NCBI RefSeq assembly: GCF_016026235.1
Contig: NZ_CP065613.1
DNA from: Escherichia coli
Lineage (GTDB): Bacteria > Pseudomonadota > Gammaproteobacteria > Enterobacterales > Enterobacteriaceae
Strand: one strand, 5' to 3'
DNA: 64,000 bases
Both the position numbers and the translations under genes were made by a program. Below the pieces are notes generated by a model. The model was not told where the DNA came from. It saw nothing but the letters and a program-made list of their open reading frames with translations, and did not search any database. Below, one piece after another: positions 1 through 63,436 of this stretch (positions are counted from its first letter, which is position 1; each line of letters starts with the position of its first letter).

Positions 1-1
1 C

Positions 2-916
2 ATGAATCAAACTGTCGCGGTGACGGGCGCTACCGGTTTTATCGGTAAATATATTATCGATAACCTGCTCGCCCGCGGCTTTCACGTTCGCGCATTGACG
101 CGTACTGCCCGCGCTCACGTCAATGACAATCTCACCTGGGTGCGCGGTTCGCTGGAAGATACTCATTCACTTAGCGAACTGGTTGCCGGAGCCAGTGCGG
201 TGGTCCATTGCGCTGGGCAAGTGCGCGGACACAAAGAAGAGATTTTTACCCACTGTAACGTTGACGGCAGCCTGCACCTGATGCAAGCGGCAAAAGAGAG
301 CGGCTTTTGCCAACGTTTTCTGTTTATCTCTTCGCTGGCGGCGCGCCATCCCGAGCTCTCCTGGTACGCAAATTCCAAACACGTCGCCGAACAACGGCTG
401 ACTGCAATGGCTGACGAAATTACGCTGGGCGTTTTTCGCCCGACAGCCGTGTATGGTCCCGGCGATAAAGAGTTAAAACCGCTGTTTGACTGGATGCTGC
501 GCGGCCTGCTGCCACGACTTGGTGCACCAGATACACAGCTCTCTTTCCTGCACGTCACCGATTTTGCGCAAGCAGTGGGTCAGTGGTTAAGCGCCGAAAC
601 TGTACAGACGCAAACCTATGAATTATGCGATGGCGTCGCTGGCGGCTATGACTGGCAACGCATACAGCAACTTGCCGCCAACGTCCGTTGCGGTTCCGTG
701 CGAATGGTTGGTATTCCTCTGCCGGTACTCACCTGCCTTGCGGATATCAGTACCGCGTTGAGTCGCCTGGCAGGTAAAGAACCTATGCTGACCCGCTCGA
801 AAATTCGTGAATTAACCCACGCCGACTGGTCGGCAAGTAATAACCGTATTTCTGAAGATATTAATTGGTTTCCCGGGATTAGCCTGGAACACGCATTACG
901 CAACGGGCTATTTTGA
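2..916 (+). CDS. NAD(P)-dependent epimerase/dehydratase-family (extended SDR) reductase
   Basis: 304-aa ORF; N-terminal Rossmann motif VTGATGFIGK; YANSK (YxxxK) catalytic motif; start codon at 2-4. Confidence 0.8.
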   Translation: MNQTVAVTGATGFIGKYIIDNLLARGFHVRALTRTARAHVNDNLTWVRGSLEDTHSLSELVAGASAVVHCAGQVRGHKEEIFTHCNVDGSLHLMQAAKESGFCQRFLFISSLAARHPELSWYANSKHVAEQRLTAMADEITLGVFRPTAVYGPGDKELKPLFDWMLRGLLPRLGAPDTQLSFLHVTDFAQAVGQWLSAETVQTQTYELCDGVAGGYDWQRIQQLAANVRCGSVRMVGIPLPVLTCLADISTALSRLAGKEPMLTRSKIRELTHADWSASNNRISEDINWFPGISLEHALRNGLF

Positions 917-947
917 TTGTCTTGTTTAAAGGTGTGTTAACGTTTCT

Positions 948-1196
948 ATGGTAAATCGTGAAATAGTAATGGATTACATCCTTTCCTGTTTACAGGATTT
1001 GGTCGAAAACGGTGTGGAAATTAAGCCCGACAGCGATCTCGTCAACGATCTTGGCCTGGAGTCGATCAAAGTGATGGATCTCTTAATGATGCTGGAAGAC
1101 AGATTCGATATTTCCATTCCTATTAATATTCTGCTGGATGTCAAAACCCCTGCGCAATTAATGGAAACTCTACTTCCATGGCTGGAGAATAAATAA
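948..1196 (+). CDS. acyl carrier protein-like small acidic protein
   Basis: 82-aa ORF; DLGLESI motif resembling the ACP phosphopantetheine attachment site (DSL); stop overlaps start of next gene. Confidence 0.65.
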   Translation: MVNREIVMDYILSCLQDLVENGVEIKPDSDLVNDLGLESIKVMDLLMMLEDRFDISIPINILLDVKTPAQLMETLLPWLENK

Positions 1197-2368
1197 TGGG
1201 GCTATACGATAAATATGCGCGCCTTGCTGGCGAGCGACTGCAATTTAGTGACAACGGGTTAACACCGTTTGGCACCTGTATTGATGAAGTGTATTCCGCC
1301 ACCGAAGGCCGGATCGGCAATAAAAAAGTGATTCTGGCCGGGACCAATAATTATCTCGGTTTAACCTTTAATCATGATGCCATCAGCGAAGGTCAGGCAG
1401 CGTTAGCGGCCCAAGGCACCGGCACCACCGGTTCTCGTATGGCAAACGGCAGTTATGCGCCGCACCTGGCGTTAGAGAAAGAGATTGCCGAGTTTTTCAA
1501 TCGCCCTACCGCTATCGTTTTTTCAACCGGTTATACCGCTAATTTAGGCGTCATCAGCGCACTTGCCGACCATAACGCCGTGGTGTTACTGGATGCCGAC
1601 AGCCACGCCAGTATTTATGACGCCTGTTCTCTCGGTGGCGCGGAAATTATTCGTTTCCGCCATAACGATGCTAAAGATCTGGAACGGCGCATGGTTCGCC
1701 TCGGTGAACGGGCGAAAGAGGCGATTATCATCGTTGAGGGCATCTACAGCATGCTCGGTGACGTTGCGCCGCTGGCGGAAATTGTTGATATCAAACGTCG
1801 TCTCGGTGGTTATTTGATTGTCGATGAAGCGCATTCGTTTGGCGTGTTAGGCGCAACAGGGCGCGGACTGGCTGAAGCTGTCGGCGTTGAAGATGATGTG
1901 GATATTATCGTTGGTACTTTCAGTAAAAGTCTGGCCTCGATTGGCGGTTTTGCTGTCGGTTCGGAAGCGATGGAAGTGCTGCGCTACGGCAGCCGCCCGT
2001 ATATTTTTACCGCCTCTCCTTCTCCGTCCTGCATTGCGACCGTGCGCTCGTCGTTAAGAACTATTGCCACACAACCAGAGCTGCGGCAAAAGCTGATGGA
2101 TAACGCCAACCATCTGTATGACGGTCTGCAAAAACTGGGTTATGAGTTAAGTTCACATATTAGCCCGGTAGTGCCAGTAATAATCGGTTCGAAAGAGGAA
2201 GGTTTACGCATCTGGCGCGAGCTTATCTCGCTGGGCGTGTATGTGAATCTTATCCTGCCGCCTGCCGCGCCTGCAGGCATCACGCTGCTGCGCTGTAGCG
2301 TAAATGCTGCCCACAGTCGTGAGCAAATCGATGCCATCATTCAGGCATTTGCTACTCTGAAGCAGTAA
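1196..2368 (+). CDS. PLP-dependent alpha-oxoamine synthase family acyltransferase (BioF/Kbl/serine-palmitoyltransferase-like)
   Basis: 390-aa ORF; conserved VDEAHSFG and GTFSKSL (PLP-binding Lys) motifs typical of class-II aminotransferase alpha-oxoamine synthases. Confidence 0.85.
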   Translation: MGLYDKYARLAGERLQFSDNGLTPFGTCIDEVYSATEGRIGNKKVILAGTNNYLGLTFNHDAISEGQAALAAQGTGTTGSRMANGSYAPHLALEKEIAEFFNRPTAIVFSTGYTANLGVISALADHNAVVLLDADSHASIYDACSLGGAEIIRFRHNDAKDLERRMVRLGERAKEAIIIVEGIYSMLGDVAPLAEIVDIKRRLGGYLIVDEAHSFGVLGATGRGLAEAVGVEDDVDIIVGTFSKSLASIGGFAVGSEAMEVLRYGSRPYIFTASPSPSCIATVRSSLRTIATQPELRQKLMDNANHLYDGLQKLGYELSSHISPVVPVIIGSKEEGLRIWRELISLGVYVNLILPPAAPAGITLLRCSVNAAHSREQIDAIIQAFATLKQ

Positions 2369-2373
2369 TGTGA

Positions 2374-2401
2374 GCCCGCCGTGGTGTTTGCGCCACGGCG
2401 G
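2374..2401. terminator. bidirectional stem-loop between convergent operons
   Basis: inverted repeat cccgccgtgg / ccacggcggg with 8-nt loop, followed by ttt. Confidence 0.5.
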
Positions 2402-2403
2402 GT

Positions 2404-3483
2404 TTAATGTTGTCTGTCATACCAATACACCAGGCTCAACGCCACCAACACAAACGCTACCGGTAAACCGAGCGCGGTAACAGGTGCGCTTAACGCAAAT
2501 AGCAATCCCAGATTAACCATGATTTGATAGCTGATCCAGGTGAGTAAGCCCACGATGACGCCTACAGCGAGACGGCTACCCATCCCAGGCGAACGCGGGG
2601 CAGTAAAGGTAAACGGCACAGCCAGCAAAATCATCGCCAGGGTCAGGATGGGTTGCCCCAGTTTTTCCCACAGTGCAAGGCGGTATTCGCTGCTGGGTTG
2701 CCCGGTTTCCTGCAAATAATGGATGTAATGATTAAGCTGACGGACAGAAAAAGTATTCCCCGGCATTGATAACTCTTCAAGATTCATACTGGTGAAGGCC
2801 GATTGCCAGGCAAGATTATCTAATGTTTCCAGCGTTTCTTTGCCATTCAGCCATTTTTTATGATTCACACCATGCAGGACCCACGTTTTGTCGTCTTTAA
2901 TGGTGGCACTGCGTGCATAAATGTAGGATTCAAGCGAGAGATCGTCGGGATAATGAAATATCTCCACGCCCACCGGCTGGCCCTGCTCGTTCAGCGATTT
3001 CACCGTCACAAATTCATTACCACGCCTGGCCCACAGCATATTGCCGGTAATGTCATCGTCCTCCCCCAACGCGGTGGCGGTCGATTTGATTTGCAGCGCC
3101 TGTTGCTGCAATGGCGACGCCACCCACTCATCTATCGCGCCTAACGAAACAGTCCACAATATCCCGGCAACCAGCGCCACCAGTGCAATACGGAAGATAG
3201 AAAACCCCGTGCTGCGAATGGCGGTAAGCTCACTGTTTTTCGATAACTGCCCCAGGCCAACAATCCCTCCCAATAAGGCGATAAACGGCGAAAGTTCGAC
3301 CAGTGTGCGCGGTAAGGTCATTAGCACCACCAGCACCGCCTGAGTCCAGCGATAACCGCCCGGGCTGACATCATCCAGTTCGTTAATCAGGTTGAAGGTG
3401 GTAAAAAGCGGCAGCAATAGCCCTGCGGCGGCGGCAAAACCGAGAAAGAGATGACGGATTAAATAGCGACTGAAAACATTCAT
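2404..3483 (-). CDS. LptG-like (YjgP/YjgQ family) permease paralog
   Basis: ORF 2404-3564; likely start at internal Met (MNVFSRYLIRHLF) giving a 4-bp overlap with the upstream gene; multi-TM protein with C-terminal similarity to LptG. Confidence 0.7.
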   Translation of the reverse strand: MNVFSRYLIRHLFLGFAAAAGLLLPLFTTFNLINELDDVSPGGYRWTQAVLVVLMTLPRTLVELSPFIALLGGIVGLGQLSKNSELTAIRSTGFSIFRIALVALVAGILWTVSLGAIDEWVASPLQQQALQIKSTATALGEDDDITGNMLWARRGNEFVTVKSLNEQGQPVGVEIFHYPDDLSLESYIYARSATIKDDKTWVLHGVNHKKWLNGKETLETLDNLAWQSAFTSMNLEELSMPGNTFSVRQLNHYIHYLQETGQPSSEYRLALWEKLGQPILTLAMILLAVPFTFTAPRSPGMGSRLAVGVIVGLLTWISYQIMVNLGLLFALSAPVTALGLPVAFVLVALSLVYWYDRQH

Positions 3484-4550
3484 CGGGAAAATTTCTGCAG
3501 CAAAGAGAAGTCGCGTGCGACCAGCATCAGCAGGCCCATTAGCATGAGTCCGGGTACTAACCACAAACCAGGAATGAGGGGAATCGCGCCGTTAGCCACC
3601 AGCGTACGGCAGACGTCGCCGCCATAAAAAATGGCAATAAACAGCAACGTCAGTGGCAATAATGTTGAAAATCGCCCTTGCCGCGGTTTTACCCGACTTA
3701 ATGAAATGGCCAGCAGCGCCATCAACAATGCTGTCAGGCCACGGCTTTGCCGCCATTGCAGTTCGGCATGATCGGCAGGAAATACAGAGCGTGCCAGCTC
3801 CGTGACCGATTTTGCTTTGCGTTTGACGTTAGGGCTTTGATCCAGCGGATTCAGATGTAATTGCAGATTACGGTAGATCTGTTCATTGTCGTCACGCCCC
3901 TGATGATCGAGAAGATAGGCAGTGCCGTTGTGCAACATAACGGTCGGTTTCTCGGGTGATGGGTCAACCACATCAACCGAACGGGCGCGGAAAATGCGGG
4001 TTCGATTGGCAGTAGAAGTATAAATCAGCGCGTCAGTCAGGCGATTATTATCCTGATCAACCGTCTGCGAAAGGATCATTCGTCCGTTATCGTTAGTGTT
4101 AAATTTCTTTGCCCGCAACTGGCGAACATCCAGCTCCGACTGCGACTGCTGCTCCAGTTGATAAATCTGCGCATAAGCCCACGGACGACCATACATCGAC
4201 AGAAGGGTGACAAAAATACTTAGCGGTATCGCCAGATAAAGAACGGCTTTGTACAAGCGTCCCGGACTGCCCCCCGCCGCAGAGATAGCGGTAATTTCCG
4301 AGTCGGTATACATCTGCCCTAGCGTCACGCCAACTGACACATACAGACCAACAGGTAACAACATCTCCAGTGCAATCAGCACTTTGTAGAAAACGATATC
4401 CAGCACAACATCAAGAGCTAATGTCCCATTTGCCGCTTCGGTCAGATAACGCTGTGCGGAGTAGCTGGCGAAAATAAAGATCAGAAAACCGACGATAATC
4501 AGCACCAGACGGCGCGTACCACGCATGATGTAGTGTTCAACCAGCTTCAT
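3480..4550 (-). CDS. LptF-like (YjgP/YjgQ family) permease paralog
   Basis: 356-aa ORF; motif LGQMYTDSEITAISAAG resembling the conserved LptF/LptG segment; multi-TM. Confidence 0.7.
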   Translation of the reverse strand: MKLVEHYIMRGTRRLVLIIVGFLIFIFASYSAQRYLTEAANGTLALDVVLDIVFYKVLIALEMLLPVGLYVSVGVTLGQMYTDSEITAISAAGGSPGRLYKAVLYLAIPLSIFVTLLSMYGRPWAYAQIYQLEQQSQSELDVRQLRAKKFNTNDNGRMILSQTVDQDNNRLTDALIYTSTANRTRIFRARSVDVVDPSPEKPTVMLHNGTAYLLDHQGRDDNEQIYRNLQLHLNPLDQSPNVKRKAKSVTELARSVFPADHAELQWRQSRGLTALLMALLAISLSRVKPRQGRFSTLLPLTLLFIAIFYGGDVCRTLVANGAIPLIPGLWLVPGLMLMGLLMLVARDFSLLQKFSR

Positions 4551-4580
4551 CTCACTAACGCCCTCAATCCTTTGAATTTT

Positions 4581-5144
4581 TTATTCATTGATCAGTTTCT
4601 GCGCCAGCGCAATGACATGATCTACCTCTTCCGGCGTCAGGCTGCCGTCCTTTGCCCACTGAATTTGCCCGGTTTTATTCAGCACCAGAATGGTTGAACT
4701 CTGCTCCGGCAAGCGCCAGGCAACGCGTCCCTGTCCATTGCCGTCAATAACGAATTGCGCCCACGGATAGCGGCGTTTATTTTTTTCGATTTTGCCAACG
4801 ACAAAATAGCCAGTACCAAAGATGGCATCATCAGTGTTCACAATGGTGGTGGGCTGAAAACGATCCTGTGGAAAGTTTGCCGCTTCAACCGCTTTAATTA
4901 ACAGTGAGTTCTTCTTCTTCGCTGACTTACGCCCGGCGATATACTGGATAATGCGGACTTTTCCCGCCAATTGTGTGCTGTTCCACTTTTGGTAGTGAAT
5001 TTCGTCGTCGCTATTCAGAAGCAGCTCGCCGCCTTCCTGAATATAAACAGGGGTAACCGTTTTGCCAGTGACGAAATTGTGTGCCTGCACACCCGGGGCT
5101 AAGAGCATGATAATCAGCGCAATAATCAAACGAGATGACATCAT
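4581..5144 (-). CDS. secreted/periplasmic protein of unknown function
   Basis: 187-aa ORF with an N-terminal signal-peptide-like segment (LIIALIIMLLAPGVQA). Confidence 0.5.
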   Translation of the reverse strand: MMSSRLIIALIIMLLAPGVQAHNFVTGKTVTPVYIQEGGELLLNSDDEIHYQKWNSTQLAGKVRIIQYIAGRKSAKKKNSLLIKAVEAANFPQDRFQPTTIVNTDDAIFGTGYFVVGKIEKNKRRYPWAQFVIDGNGQGRVAWRLPEQSSTILVLNKTGQIQWAKDGSLTPEEVDHVIALAQKLINE

Positions 5145-5152
5145 TGCTCCGG

Positions 5153-5977
5153 TTATAGCGGAAAACGCGAAATCAGCAGCTCTAAGCGCTGGCGAATATC
5201 GCTATCCAGCGCCACCGGTGCATCATACGACTGGCGGTTTTCCATATCATCCGCCACCATGTCGTCGTGTTTATCCCCCATCAGGCCATTAATGGCGGCG
5301 AGGAAACGGGAAATCTGTAACGCCTCTTTATTTTCAGGATCAAGCGATCTTAAGGTGTCGTAATAAGAAACCTGCTGGCTGATGATTTTTCGCACATCAT
5401 GAAATTCCCTGCCGGTTAGTCGCGGTTTGGCAATTATCTCTTTCAGGGCATGCATTTGCTTTTGCCGATAGGCAATAAAACCGCTTACGCTTTCTAACTG
5501 GCTATGGCGTAATGAATAGTTCACCAACGACCAGACCGGAGAGCTTAAATAAATTCGTAACAGGTTGCCGTAATACGACACAATATTTTTCTTACCGTTA
5601 CGAAATCCGTCCTGAAAACGTCCCAGAAAAACGGTCGTTTTGCCGAATAAAAATCTGGCCTGATGCTTTTTTAAATACAGCCGTTGTGCAAAACGTAGAT
5701 GCTTGTAGCGCGCTCGCATGTATTTAAACTGTTTACGCTCGTCTGTCGTCAGCTCATCGCCTTTGGCTTGTTTGCGAATTAAACGAAGTAATTCCTGACG
5801 ATCAACGCCATTGAGCCAGAATTGCAGGCATAACGCGTAATTATCATGGATGATTTCGGTGGTACAACATAGTGCGATAGTCGGCGGCAAACTGACCTGG
5901 GCATCAACAACATCATCTTCCTCAATCGCAACAAATAGATGCTCGCTCGCCTCAAGCGGGAAATATTTTCTCATCAT
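5153..5977 (-). CDS. hypothetical protein (possible counterpart of the K-12 yghO pseudogene)
   Basis: 274-aa ORF, in operon orientation with flanking genes; no motif recognised. Confidence 0.45.
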   Translation of the reverse strand: MMRKYFPLEASEHLFVAIEEDDVVDAQVSLPPTIALCCTTEIIHDNYALCLQFWLNGVDRQELLRLIRKQAKGDELTTDERKQFKYMRARYKHLRFAQRLYLKKHQARFLFGKTTVFLGRFQDGFRNGKKNIVSYYGNLLRIYLSSPVWSLVNYSLRHSQLESVSGFIAYRQKQMHALKEIIAKPRLTGREFHDVRKIISQQVSYYDTLRSLDPENKEALQISRFLAAINGLMGDKHDDMVADDMENRQSYDAPVALDSDIRQRLELLISRFPL

Positions 5978-7326
5978 CAGGATTTCTCTCCGGCTGCGTT
6001 ATAAAGCAAGGAATGGCGCTGAAAAAAAGCCTTTAAGATCGGAATTAGCGAAAGCACCACATCCAGACATTGACCGCCGAAATAAGCAAACGCTGCTCCC
6101 AGCACGCCAAACAGATGACAGAACATGAACAGCAATACGATGTAGCCGATTGAGGCGATGGTTTGCGCCACGAGAAAAGCGCGCTGTTTTCCCGCCATCA
6201 ATAGCAATGACTCCTGAGGGAAGCCCAGCATCGAGATCACAATTGCGCCCAGCATCACCTGAATCAGGTCATACGCTTCGAGATACTTAACGCCAAACAC
6301 CAGCGAAATGAGCGGCTTGCCGACGATCAACACCGCGAGCGCCACCAGAATACCGATTCCGCCCGCCAGTAAACCGGACTTCACACCTAACAACCACGGT
6401 CTGGTGGTGCGCGGATCTAAACGCATCACCTCTGGGTAAAAACTTTTACCCAGCAAACCCGCTGGCGTTCCGGCGGCGTCGAAGAATGTCATGGCGATTT
6501 TAAATAACCCGGCGACAGCGGGTCCTAACACGATCCCCACCAACACTGTGCTGCACGAGTTACGCGCCGACCAGATGGAGTGGGCAATGTTGGTTGACCA
6601 GACAAAACTCCACGCGCCTTTAATGTGTCGGGCAGACTCAAACAGATTCAATTTGAAGGCGTTATGGATATTTCTGCGGCGTAATTCGCGCGCGGCAAAC
6701 CACCAGTACATGGTGCCGCCAACCAGATTCGACACGTACCAGGCAATAACAAAACCCGCAAAACCAAAGTCAAAATACCAGGCTGCGACGCTCCCCGCTG
6801 CGCGCAGAAAAGGTTTCGTCGCCTGCTGTACAGCAATCAAATCAAAGCGATCTACCGCACGCAGAATGCCGGTCGGCGTGGAGGAAGCCATTGAAGGAAT
6901 GAGCGTGCAATACAGCGCTGCCAGCCAAAAGCTTTGGTCATCCAGACCTAATGAATGGGAAAGAAAAGGGAGTAAGGCAATGCCGCCGACAATCGCCACC
7001 GCGCCGCTGACGATATCCAGCGAGAAGGAAAATGAGACGACATTGCGAAATTGCTGCGGATTATTGTTGGTTAATGCTGGTGTTCCGTACTGAACCACCA
7101 GCTGCCATGTCTGAAACTTAATAAAATCGCTGATCGACTTGGCGTACGATTGCACAATCACCAGTACGCCAAACATGGCGGGCGTCATCCCTTTACCGGC
7201 ACACGAGAGCGCCAACAGACCCAGCAAGGCGCTCACGACATTACTGGAGCCTAACCAGGCGCTATTGCGAATAATGGTGCGAAACGCGCCATCTGCAAAC
7301 CAATGTTTGATGTTAAAACCCGCCAA
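5977..7326 (-). CDS. yghQ: polytopic inner-membrane protein, flippase-like (polysaccharide-biosynthesis/MOP type)
   Basis: 449-aa highly hydrophobic ORF; position immediately before yghR as in K-12. Confidence 0.6.
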   Translation of the reverse strand: MAGFNIKHWFADGAFRTIIRNSAWLGSSNVVSALLGLLALSCAGKGMTPAMFGVLVIVQSYAKSISDFIKFQTWQLVVQYGTPALTNNNPQQFRNVVSFSFSLDIVSGAVAIVGGIALLPFLSHSLGLDDQSFWLAALYCTLIPSMASSTPTGILRAVDRFDLIAVQQATKPFLRAAGSVAAWYFDFGFAGFVIAWYVSNLVGGTMYWWFAARELRRRNIHNAFKLNLFESARHIKGAWSFVWSTNIAHSIWSARNSCSTVLVGIVLGPAVAGLFKIAMTFFDAAGTPAGLLGKSFYPEVMRLDPRTTRPWLLGVKSGLLAGGIGILVALAVLIVGKPLISLVFGVKYLEAYDLIQVMLGAIVISMLGFPQESLLLMAGKQRAFLVAQTIASIGYIVLLFMFCHLFGVLGAAFAYFGGQCLDVVLSLIPILKAFFQRHSLLYNAAGEKS

Positions 7327-7371
7327 TTCAGCCTGACCTTATCGTTGATAGTAAAAAGTATCCCGCCAGCC

Positions 7372-8130
7372 TTAAGTTAAACTTCGGCGGTCAGAAACGA
7401 TGGCAACCAGAGAAACCGCCTTCTGTGCCTGTTCCAGCACTTCGCTGTAGGGCGCTCTGGAATCAATCTCAAGAATTTTTGTGCCGTTATAGCCAATCGT
7501 CGACATAACACTGATTTTGTCCTGCAGCTCGGCATAGTCATGGTCAGGCTTGCGGGAGATGGCAGTCTCAATATCAATGCCCAGGCGAATAATTAATTCC
7601 GGGCGATATTGCGCCATTTGTTGGTATAAACGCCGTTCGCGCTGCGCCAGAAACATGCTGATTTTCCCGGTCGCACGTTCGACGCCAATCCCCGGTCCGT
7701 CATAATAAAAGCCCGAAATTTCAGCCTGCGGGAAGCGATCGCTGACCACCAGAACGCCACTTTGCGCCAGTCGCTGAACCTTGCGTAGATTCGCCATTCT
7801 TCGCAGCGAGAAGCAGTACATAATCACCGCCGCCCATAGCGCCGGAGATTTGGTTTTCATGCTTTGGGTTTTCGAGGATTTGGCCGCCAGTCGCCGTTCC
7901 AGCCAGACGCCAACCAACGGCAATCGTTTGATTTTGTCGCCGTCTTCGCCGGAGAGCAGCCCCAAATAGCGGCGCTCGGTTTGCCAGTGTTGTTGCAGCG
8001 ATTTCACCAGGTCGGTGGTCAGTGTGGATTTACCGGTGCCATCACACCCGACCACCGCAATCAGCCCCGGAATGTAGTTGGGCTGCGGCGCGGTTGTACT
8101 AATAACAGTTTGTGTTTGTAGTGCATCCAT
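7372..8130 (-). CDS. yghR: P-loop ATP-binding protein
   Basis: 252-aa ORF; Walker A VVGCDGTGKST; paralog of the next two genes. Confidence 0.7.
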   Translation of the reverse strand: MDALQTQTVISTTAPQPNYIPGLIAVVGCDGTGKSTLTTDLVKSLQQHWQTERRYLGLLSGEDGDKIKRLPLVGVWLERRLAAKSSKTQSMKTKSPALWAAVIMYCFSLRRMANLRKVQRLAQSGVLVVSDRFPQAEISGFYYDGPGIGVERATGKISMFLAQRERRLYQQMAQYRPELIIRLGIDIETAISRKPDHDYAELQDKISVMSTIGYNGTKILEIDSRAPYSEVLEQAQKAVSLVAIVSDRRSLT

Positions 8131-9789: not shown

Positions 9790-11301
9790 TTAAATCAACT
9801 GCAATGCTATCCAGTACAGCCCACCAGAAAGAAAAATCGCCGCCGGTAAAGTAAATACCCACGCCATCAGGATGCTGGTTACCGTTTTACGCTGTAACCC
9901 ACCGCCGTCCACCACCATCGTCCCTGCAACTGCAGACGAGAGGACGTGTGTTGTGGAGACGGGCATCCCAATATAACTGGCAAGACCGATAGACACTGCC
10001 GCCGTCATTTGTGCCGCCATGCCTTGCGCATACGTCATGCCGCGCTTACCAATCTTCTCACCGATGGTCATCGCTACACGACGCCAGCCAATCATGGTGC
10101 CAATGCCGAGCGCCAGTGCTACCGCCATGATGATCCACACCGGAGCGTACTCAATGGTGCTTAACATATCGCTGCGAAGTTTTTTCAGCAGGTTCTGGTC
10201 TTCTTTACTGACGCCTGGCGGTTTCGCCAGCTTCGCGGAGGTATCAGAGATGCACAGCATAATGCACAGCATAATGCGGCGCAGCTGGCTGCGCTGACTC
10301 ACGCTTAACGGCTCGTAACTTTCCATATTGCCTGGCAGCATCGTTTTAACGCGCGCAATCGCATCAAAGGTATTTGCCGGATGACAGTGAAACTCCGTCA
10401 CTTGCGCGCCATCAGTAGATGCCGCAGGCAATGGAGGTTCCATCGTAATCAACTTCTGCGGCAGTTCAGGATGCTGTTGCAGGTAGTGTTCGAAGTTGGT
10501 GACGGCATCGCGGGTACGGGTAATTTCATAGCCGGACGCGTTCATATTGACGACGAAGCCAGCAGGGGCAATCCCCACCAATACCAGCATCACCAGGCCG
10601 ATCCCTTTCTGCCCGTCGTTAGCGCCGTGCGAAAACGCCACGCCCGCAGCGGAAACAATCAGCGCAATACGCGTCCAGAATGGCGGCTTACGTTTGCCTT
10701 TTTTCTTTTTGCGATCTTCCGGAATGCGGTGAATACGGTCACGCTTTTTCGTTCCGCTCCAGTAGCGTCGCAGCAGGAATATCAGGCCTCCCGCAATGAC
10801 CAGGCCGACGATAGGGGAAACAATCAGCGAGGAGAAAATTTTGGTCACTTCACGCAGGTTTAACGCATCCATCACCGATGAGCCGGTTAACAGCGCGTTG
10901 GTTAAACCGATGCCGATAATCGCACCAATCAAGGTGTGCGAACTGGAGGCCGGTAAACCAAAGAACCACGTTCCCAGGTTCCAGATAATCGCCGCCAGCA
11001 GCATGGAAAAGACCATCGCCAGACCGTGAGTTGACCCCATATTCAGCAGCAAATCGGTTGGTAACATATGGACAATGGCATAGGCAACGCTAAGTCCGCC
11101 CAATAACACGCCAAAAAAGTTAAAAAATGCCGCCATCACCACAGCAAGTTGTGGTTGCATGGCACGAGTATAAATAACGGTTGCCACCGCATTCGCCGTA
11201 TCATGAAAACCATTGATTGCTTCGTAGAACAACACAAATGCCAGAGCAAGTAATAACAAAAGCCCTGTGTATATATCAAGGCCAACAAATAAATTTAGCA
11301 T
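9790..11301 (-). CDS. pitB: low-affinity inorganic phosphate transporter
   Basis: 503-aa ORF with PiT-family sequence; adjacent to gss as in K-12; contains a 12-bp in-frame tandem duplication. Confidence 0.85.
10251..10274. repeat. 12-bp perfect tandem duplication (tgcacagcataa x2) inside pitB
   Basis: direct reading of sequence; encodes IMLCIMLC on the minus strand. Confidence 0.9.
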
Positions 11302-61974: not shown

Positions 61975-62114
61975 GCTGAAACGGGAAAGCCCCTCCCGAA
62001 GAAGGGGCCTTGTATAAGGAAAGGGTTATGATGAAGCTCGTCATCATACTGATTGTGTTGTTACTCGTAAGTTTCGCAGCTTATTAACAGCCAATCAGAG
62101 GGGGGAGAAATCCT
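61975..62114 (-). ncRNA. sibD: SibD antitoxin sRNA body (antisense to ibsD), separated from its promoter by the IS insertion
   Basis: sequence homologous to the intact second copy; boundaries inferred. Confidence 0.4.
62028..62087 (+). CDS. ibsD: type I toxin peptide Ibs (19 aa, MMKLVIILIVLLLVSFAAY)
   Basis: direct translation; hydrophobic 19-mer. Confidence 0.8.
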   Translation: MMKLVIILIVLLLVSFAAY

Positions 62115-63407
62115 CTGAGGGATCCCCAGAAAATTTAGTAAACCATTATCATATTGGTATACCGTTGCTGTAGAACTTTCAGCCCTGCGTCAAATGACAG
62201 TGTGTTTAGTATGAGTGGAGAATGTCGAATCACATTCTCCGCCAGTTTTAATAACGAGATGACTCGCCTGTGCTTCACTGTATTTGCCTGATATTTATGA
62301 TGTATCCCTTTGTTTTCCAGGCTGAAACCGCTTAACCACATAATGATACTGGCTAATGTTGCGATCAGACTCAATACCGTGACCCGCCCGGATGAATGAC
62401 TGGCACCAAACCGTAGTCCAAATCCCCAGCGAGGATTTTTTTCATCCCTGAAATTTTGCTCAATTTGCATTCTACGGCTGTATAATTTCATTACCTGTTT
62501 TGGCGAGAACTCAGTACTGTTTGTGAAAATAAACCATGGTGATTTCCCGGCAGTACGAGCTTTAGCCGTCACCGATGGTCTGGTTGCTCTTTCCTTCGAG
62601 CGTTTAAATCTACGACCTTTAGGCTTACTTTTATAAAGATAAAAATGCCCTTCATGTTGTGCATTTTTATCTCGACCCAGCAGGCCTTCACCTAAATAAA
62701 TTGCTGTCGTTGATGCTTTTGTGCCTGAGTCCGACACCTTTTCCCAGCCATTACCAACATTGTAATAATGATTGCCCAGTACCCGGCAAATATAGGTCCA
62801 GCCACGGGAGCGGAGCTGTTGGAACCATCGCCCCTGAAAACCGGCATCTGTAATAACAATGACATCAGTCCCGGGGGAAAAGCACTCAGCAAGCGATTCC
62901 AGAAAACGCTCATGTACATCTGCATTCGCTGTCTGTGATGATGGAACGACACAACTCATCAACGGTAAAGAACGCCCGTCACATGCCAGGCTTGCCCGCA
63001 AAAGCTGAAAACGAGAGGCATGATAAGCACTCCAGTCAATGAGTATCACAACACGAGACATTCCCGCGTAATCTTTTGGGTAATTCGCTGAAAAATGGTG
63101 GAAACCTCATTTTGCAAATGTCGATTCCCCAACAGTCGATCCACCCGCTTTATTTTGTTTTTAACTGATGCCGTACCGGTTAAATGACGCCCGATACTGG
63201 TAAGTGTGAGGGAAGCGCCATTTATTACAGCATTAGTTGCGTCAATCAGTGATTTTTGACGGTAAAGATGCAAAGGGGCCAGTATATTGTTAAGGAAATT
63301 TTGGCATAATGAACGTGCAGGCATAGTGGTGATCTCCTTGAAATTGTTAGCACAATCAATTAGATCACATCTCACTATGCCTGTCTTGTTTTCTGGGGAT
63401 TCCTCAG
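62115..63407 (-). mobile_element. IS4-family, IS10-like insertion sequence (1293 bp)
   Basis: 19-bp imperfect terminal inverted repeats ctgagggatccccagaaaa / ctgaggaatccccagaaaa; flanked by direct repeats gagaaatcct (9-10 bp target-site duplication) that are single-copy in the second ibs/sib repeat. Confidence 0.8.
62135..63324 (-). CDS. IS10-like DDE transposase, encoded in two overlapping frames (possible frameshift near 63046-63061)
   Basis: N-terminal part (MPARSLCQ...NRHLQNE) and C-terminal part (VILIDWS...LYSRRMQIEQNFRDEK) both align by eye to IS10 transposase; reading frame changes between ITRE and SRVVIL. Confidence 0.7.
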
Positions 63408-63436
63408 GAGAAATCCTCCCTTACCCTTGTTCCTTT

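Follow-up and report, generated by a model that had tools for sequence, protein, structure and literature searches.

Within the stretch of 64,000 nucleotides of Escherichia coli DNA analysed here (the window), pitB occupies positions 9790-11301 on the minus strand, with 503 codons and a stop, and is predicted to encode a low-affinity metal-phosphate:H+ symporter of the PiT/PHO4 family. The preliminary description had named the gene pitB, and this was borne out on several counts. The translation matches PF01384 (PHO4) over residues 30-492 (E 8e-94; 314.9 bits against a Pfam gathering cut-off of 33.7). The protein is 99% identical to annotated pitB, and the DNA matches pitB-annotated genes in 5,411 complete E. 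coli genomes; in the RefSeq genomes the matching gene, 1500 bp long, carries that annotation. The gene order gss-pitB-yghT, with gss upstream and yghT downstream, is the one expected at the position of the PitB orthologue, and PitA-type sequences are only about 81% identical, which indicates PitB rather than PitA. The PiT family is defined by two inverted-repeat signatures with a conserved aspartate (GxND-type) and by a P-x-S-x-T hairpin (PMC7413737). Both signature motifs are present, D34 (NGFHDTAN) and D229 (HGANDGQK) being invariant across 62 homologues, among which P117-ASSSH and P447-VSTTH are also conserved. In a Foldseek comparison with the PDB, the significant matches were chains A and B of 6l85 only (E 1e-11, TMt 0.65).

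The pitB gene of the window contains a 12-bp duplication, and this duplication is real. By direct reading, tgcacagcataa stands at 10251-10262 and again at 10263-10274 as a perfect tandem. These are the positions that had been given before; the run of identity at a lag of 12 is slightly longer and covers 10250-10277 (28 bp, 2.33 copies, ATGCACAGCATA ATGCACAGCATA ATGC). The exact placement of the inserted 12 bp is ambiguous anywhere within this run, and the BLAST gap against the nearest genome, set at 10250-10261, is an arbitrary choice within it. With that choice the first copy of the unit (ATGCACAGCATA on the plus strand) lies at 10250-10261, the second at 10262-10273 and a trailing ATGC at 10274-10277, all in the minus-strand gene, and the ancestral unit is bracketed by ATGC...ATGC. 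Among perfect tandem duplications in the 64 kb of the window, the repeat in pitB stands alone in having a period of more than 8, and about 2e-5 runs of 16 matches at lag 12 are expected per window by chance. The two copies together encode IMLC-IMLC at residues 343-350. Alignment with K-12 PitB showed a single gap of four residues (503 aa here against 499 aa), in agreement with the in-frame gain of four amino acids claimed earlier. The literal peptide CIMLCIML that had been quoted is absent from the protein, in which IMLCIMLC is found instead. The duplicated allele keeps its reading frame and every motif of the transport core.

The state of the repeat in other genomes was examined with a 42-bp query spanning the duplication junction. 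The query requires a 28-bp exact word and can thus match duplicated alleles only, and in a local control it was left unmasked by the low-complexity filter of BLAST. Among 5,426 complete RefSeq E. coli genomes it found zero matches, and the 30 best-scoring pitB matches listed were all 1500 bp long, none being 1512 bp. The alignment of the window with the nearest complete genome, FDAARGOS_943, covers 62,115 bases and contains 29 SNPs and a single gap, which is the 12-bp duplication in pitB. A single copy is found in K-12 PitB, in the PitA paralogues and in 61 homologues whose identity reaches down to 31%, and the four inserted alignment columns are filled by the duplicated allele alone. The preliminary description had allowed that reference sequences might carry the same duplicated tetrapeptide; it was absent from K-12, from PitA, from other genera and from the 5,426 genomes. 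Judged by these comparisons, the duplication is derived and the single-copy state ancestral.

The single-copy ancestor reads ATGC-ACAGCATA-ATGC, that is, a 4-bp direct repeat at a spacing of 12 bp, and this ATGC-N8-ATGC state is present in FDAARGOS_943, K-12 and three other genomes. If, in slipped-strand mispairing, the nascent strand moves back from one of two such ATGC copies to the other, the result is exactly the observed product. The marks of such an event are found at the locus: perfect head-to-tail copies, microhomology at the spacing of the unit and a state that is derived relative to the outgroups. The indel had been described as being of the slipped-strand type, which agrees with the ATGC...ATGC that flanks the ancestral single copy. 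During replication the nascent strand would have slipped back and paired with the first ATGC instead of the second, whereupon the 12 intervening bases would have been copied a second time to leave the tandem duplication. A single event of this kind would have taken place, on the stem leading to a small E. coli clone that is the sister of FDAARGOS_943.

A second private change accompanies the duplication. It is an A>G transition on the plus strand at 10220, which in the minus-strand gene replaces Leu357 of PitB by proline (L357P; K-12 numbering, residue 361 here). The identical 503-aa protein, with duplication and L357P, was found on 17 public contigs under several NCBI protein accessions, assemblies and SRA runs, and the contigs that encode exactly this protein are 100% identical in DNA to the window along 2-21 kb. 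The two private changes allow three further combinations, and these were constructed and then looked up in the public collections. The allele with the duplication and without L357P was present on 19 further contigs, which brings the duplication-bearing alleles together to at least 36 public contigs, and the ancestral allele with neither change was present on at least 1000. In this lookup L357P without the duplication was not on record, nor was the duplication on the background of K-12 PitB, the only other background looked up.

The change at 10220 is private to the lineage when polarised by outgroups; the duplication-only loci carry A at this position, and a 41-bp query for 10220G found no match among complete E. 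coli genomes. A synonymous G>A at 10581 (minus strand) is common to every duplication-bearing genome and marks the stem of the clade. The duplication-only loci have the window-derived bases at 214, 10581 and 19696, the ancestral base at 10220, and are variably ancestral at 2948 and 6515. This nested pattern, together with the existence of a duplication-only allele, indicates that the duplication came first, on the stem, and L357P later, on the branch of the window. A query for 10581A matched four complete genomes, all four of which are without the duplication junction. Rb-23, the only one of the four that was compared, has an unrelated allele that is 96.8% identical to the window, and the three others are not among the closest pitB alleles listed. 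No member of the duplication clade was found among the complete RefSeq E. coli genomes searched. A scan of metagenomes with a 28-mer gave one match only, which is not pitB: positions 800-890 of contig Ga0315276_10151881 hold an unrelated tandem array of GCATAATGC(A/T)CA units, and the match is coincidental. The duplication is clade-specific and fixed in a small clonal clade. It had been put forward as a strain-specific indel; it is indeed derived, but it belongs to a clade present on at least 36 public contigs and not to a single strain. The allele is already deposited in public collections but undescribed, and is an ordinary mutation.

The differences between the window and FDAARGOS_943 have a character of their own. 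Of the 29 SNPs (window 1-62115), 28 are transitions, and after polarisation with two outgroups 25 of the 29 are G:C>A:T, distributed as 11 and 14 over the two branches. Seven of these 25 strike the inner C of CCNGG, for which 2% is expected (binomial P = 4e-7); examples are the CCSGG sites at 214, 16005, 19696, 28435 and 61826 and the CCWGG sites at 10334 and 55814. The excess at CCNGG looks like deamination of 5-methylcytosine, and the sequence context suggests that the lineage may carry a CCNGG-specific m5C methyltransferase besides Dcm. Only two A:T>G:C changes fall on the branch of the window, and the A>G at 10220 is one of them. A perfect 6-bp inverted repeat, CTGGCG-gttt-CGCCAG (10215-10230, no strand), runs through this position, where the ancestral arm reads CTGGCA. 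One might speculate that L357P arose by template switching at this quasi-palindrome; coincidence is also possible.

FDAARGOS_943 has its own private change in PitB, P323L. Its HybO, HybD, GlnE, ZupT and QseC proteins have accessions in one consecutive high range, which is taken to mean that they are private to that genome, and its yghA, which contains an internal stop, is annotated as a pseudogene. Together, P323L, the private proteins and the yghA pseudogene fit a comparable load of private mutations on the sister branch. Towards the other end of the window, an IS4-family element of 1291 bp lies at 62116-63406 in the ibs/sib repeat region between yqiK and hldE. Its best matches are annotated as ISEc60 in RefSeq. 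It is flanked by a 12-bp target-site duplication (GGAGAAATCCTC at 62104-62115 and 63407-63418), and its transposase frame is broken up into two ORFs (109 and 308 aa). FDAARGOS_943 has no insertion at this site and about 38 copies of the element elsewhere, which points to an IS-expanded lineage. At about 1-8100, beside yghS/yghT, the window has a gene cluster that is absent from K-12. The cluster comprises genes for a serine palmitoyltransferase (spt), an acyl carrier protein, a fatty acyl-AMP ligase and an epimerase as well as extra lptF/lptG paralogues, a YtfJ-family protein and a polysaccharide-synthesis protein, and it resembles a pathway for sphingolipid-like lipids. The cluster lies within the first 25 kb of the window, at least 80% of which is matched in 4,104 of 5,426 genomes, so that it is probably common in E. 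coli.

The place of the insertion in the protein was studied in AlphaFold2 models of the duplicated and the ancestral allele, with a 62-sequence alignment as input. Both models were confident, with a mean pLDDT of 90.3 (duplicated) and 87.3 (ancestral). Both models predict a single long helix at 208-244 that holds the second GAND motif, followed by five extramembrane helices (257-276, 279-287, 308-321, 334-355/358 and 362/366-379/383) and then by a transmembrane helix that aligns with TM7 of TmPiT, the Thermotoga maritima protein of 6l85. The insertion falls in the middle of the fourth of these five helices, which is predicted to extend from 334 to 355 in the ancestral protein and from 334 to 358 in the duplicated one, a lengthening by about one turn. 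Local pLDDT in the three ten-residue blocks around the insertion drops from 90/91/95 in the ancestral model to 83/74/83 in the duplicated one, despite the higher global score of the latter. L357P is predicted to sit in the turn directly past the lengthened helix, at a position that is Leu or Met in the aligned enterobacterial PitA and PitB. None of the 61 aligned homologues has an insertion at the point of the duplication, and in just two of them are there insertions slightly downstream, by a few residues. The domain has one near-invariant residue only, Arg341, which precedes the insertion by two residues, and RRIMLC is nearly invariant in enterobacterial PitA and PitB. In these models the site of the duplication is a conserved helix and not a variable loop. 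The earlier suggestion that the insertion might be in a loop holds in so far as the surrounding region is large and extramembrane, but the predicted position is mid-helix, in a stretch that is conserved in enterobacteria and in which no homologue has an insertion.

TmPiT aligns to PitB residues 15-174, 213-249 and 388-499, and the gap in this alignment makes the domain at residues 250-387 an insertion between TM6 and TM7. In the PitA/PitB proteins this domain (about residues 250-387; window about 10140-10552, minus strand) consists of some 135 residues in five helices, and TmPiT is without it. An F-H-C-H-P motif in the domain is invariant among the aligned enterobacterial PitA and PitB sequences, His307 being nearly so. 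In the study of TmPiT the loop that follows TM7 (L7) is placed inside the cell. From the topology of TmPiT and the single long helix at 208-244 we infer that the TM6-TM7 domain of PitA/PitB would be periplasmic. At a guess, it might have a role in recognising metal-phosphate complexes.

With respect to function, it is somewhat more probable that the insertion weakens PitB than that it is near-neutral, because none of the 61 homologues has an insertion there and the site adjoins a near-invariant arginine. The extra turn of helix in the model would probably perturb the domain and reduce function. AlphaFold2 merely extends the helix and is an unreliable judge of mutational damage. The open reading frame has remained intact during diversification of the clade, which also fits a neutral or still functional protein. 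Whether function is reduced or not, little cost is to be expected. One published account (PMC6469041) describes PitB as redundant with PitA and Pst and as reportedly being normally non-functional in wild-type E. coli. In the reports examined, strains that lose PitB show little or no phenotype, and tellurite is taken up mainly via PitA. Because PitB is reportedly redundant and normally non-functional, the allele would probably have been tolerated and have become fixed through drift or hitch-hiking. It has since been passed on stably and later gained L357P just past the helix. Many natural E. coli alleles of pitB with large in-frame deletions are also on record. They encode proteins of 430-476 aa (P0017-P0030, P0043 and P0076), some of them on 13-29 public contigs, and several remove transmembrane segments. 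P0017 and P0018 begin directly after IMLCI, and P0022 has lost the 35 residues that separate two Leu-Pro-Gly (LPG) tripeptides. It seems that pitB decays repeatedly, and the number of deletion alleles fits a weak constraint on the gene.

Taken together, the sequence comparisons make it highly probable that a slipped-strand duplication of 12 bp arose once on the stem of the clone, that it is likely to weaken PitB, and that it was tolerated and fixed by drift or hitch-hiking. Other explanations have to be weighed against this. An artefact of assembly or sequencing could have added 12 bp, and the absence of the duplication from every complete RefSeq E. coli genome would be in line with this. The allele is found, however, in the independent assemblies GCA_012807895.1, GCA_050054195.1, GCA_031665325.1 and GCA_018228405.1 and in the separately assembled SRA runs SRR12047143, SRR30892832, SRR13627083/86/94 and SRR11606891, its carriers form a nested phylogeny with the window, and there is no other indel relative to the nearest relative in 62 kb, which leaves an artefact a negligible chance. 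The notion that the 503-aa form is an old polymorphism that was lost elsewhere has nothing in its favour and is extremely improbable, given the single copy in K-12, in the sister genome, in the PitA paralogues and in the homologues of other genera, and the four alignment columns that are unique to the duplicated allele. A two-copy repeat might also serve as a reversible switch that toggles PitB as a contingency locus. Tandem duplications can be lost precisely through the same slippage that made them, which speaks for such a switch. The outgroups nevertheless have one copy and every locus of the clade that was retrieved and compared has exactly two, and the clade yielded neither a three-copy nor a revertant allele. 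Because the change is in frame, moreover, translation is not turned on and off as in a contingency locus. We regard a switch as very unlikely.

Selection deserves more attention, although it too is unlikely. The loss or reduction of PitB could have been adaptive, for example through a lower uptake of toxic metal-phosphate or oxyanions, or a remodelled domain could have been selected with L357P as the compensatory change. In the 62 kb compared with FDAARGOS_943, both branches included, pitB holds three of the 29 SNPs and the only indel, where about 0.7 SNPs would be expected. By our own post hoc and weak estimate the excess of SNPs has a Poisson P of about 0.03. Two of the three are non-synonymous, L357P on the branch of the window and P323L on that of FDAARGOS_943; the third is synonymous and lies on the branch of the window. 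A further point in favour is that L357P arose on the background of the duplication, in the turn right past the lengthened helix and at a position held by Leu or Met in the aligned enterobacterial PitA and PitB. Against selection stand the slight or absent phenotype reported for PitB loss, the fact that the duplication was not seen on the K-12 PitB background, the only other one looked up, and the location of P323L on a CCWGG deamination hotspot. Local hypermutation in pitB is a possible cause of the excess of SNPs and indel. A more specific proposal is that duplication and L357P would be two steps of a compensated remodelling, and not of decay, in which the probably periplasmic PitA/PitB domain with its FHCHP motif would come to accept other metal-phosphate complexes; this we consider very unlikely. 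The favoured explanation thus remains a single slippage event in a gene whose weakening would be tolerated.

The significance of the finding is small beyond housekeeping. The duplication is a clean and well-polarised case of microhomology-mediated in-frame duplication, it can be used as a marker of a small E. coli clone that is the sister of FDAARGOS_943, and the allele adds to the natural variants of pitB that suggest a weak constraint on this paralogue. It may furthermore be used to probe the PitA/PitB domain, if the insertion abolishes transport and L357P modifies its effect.

Compared with known systems, the protein is closest to the common allele WP_000933302.1, to which it is 100% identical once the duplication and L357P are removed; relative to this allele, window PitB has an extra IMLC after Arg342 in addition to L357P. 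K-12 PitB (b2987, NP_417461.1) is the same gene, with the same neighbours and PHO4 domain, and differs additionally at three polymorphic residues (A41, A286 and T299). The only solved structural relative is TmPiT (PDB 6l85). Its transport core aligns with that of PitB (E 7e-18 by sequence; Foldseek TM 0.65), whereas a short link joins TM6 and TM7 where PitA and PitB have the helical domain of about 135 residues that holds the duplication. Because TmPiT is without this inserted domain, 6l85 says nothing direct on the mutated helix. As a mutation, the event resembles the textbook short tandem duplications ascribed to slipped-strand or microhomology-mediated processes (e.g. of the lacI hotspot type) in its head-to-tail copies and short flanking repeat. 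Set against those, the pitB case has nothing unusual, with a unit of 12 bp, a microhomology of 4 bp and no sign of recurrence. Within the gene itself, the deletion alleles of 430-476 aa are, like the duplication, in-frame indels that persist in lineages, some of them in the same domain. Several of these are surely inactive, whereas the duplication is a small insertion by which none of the transport motifs is disrupted.
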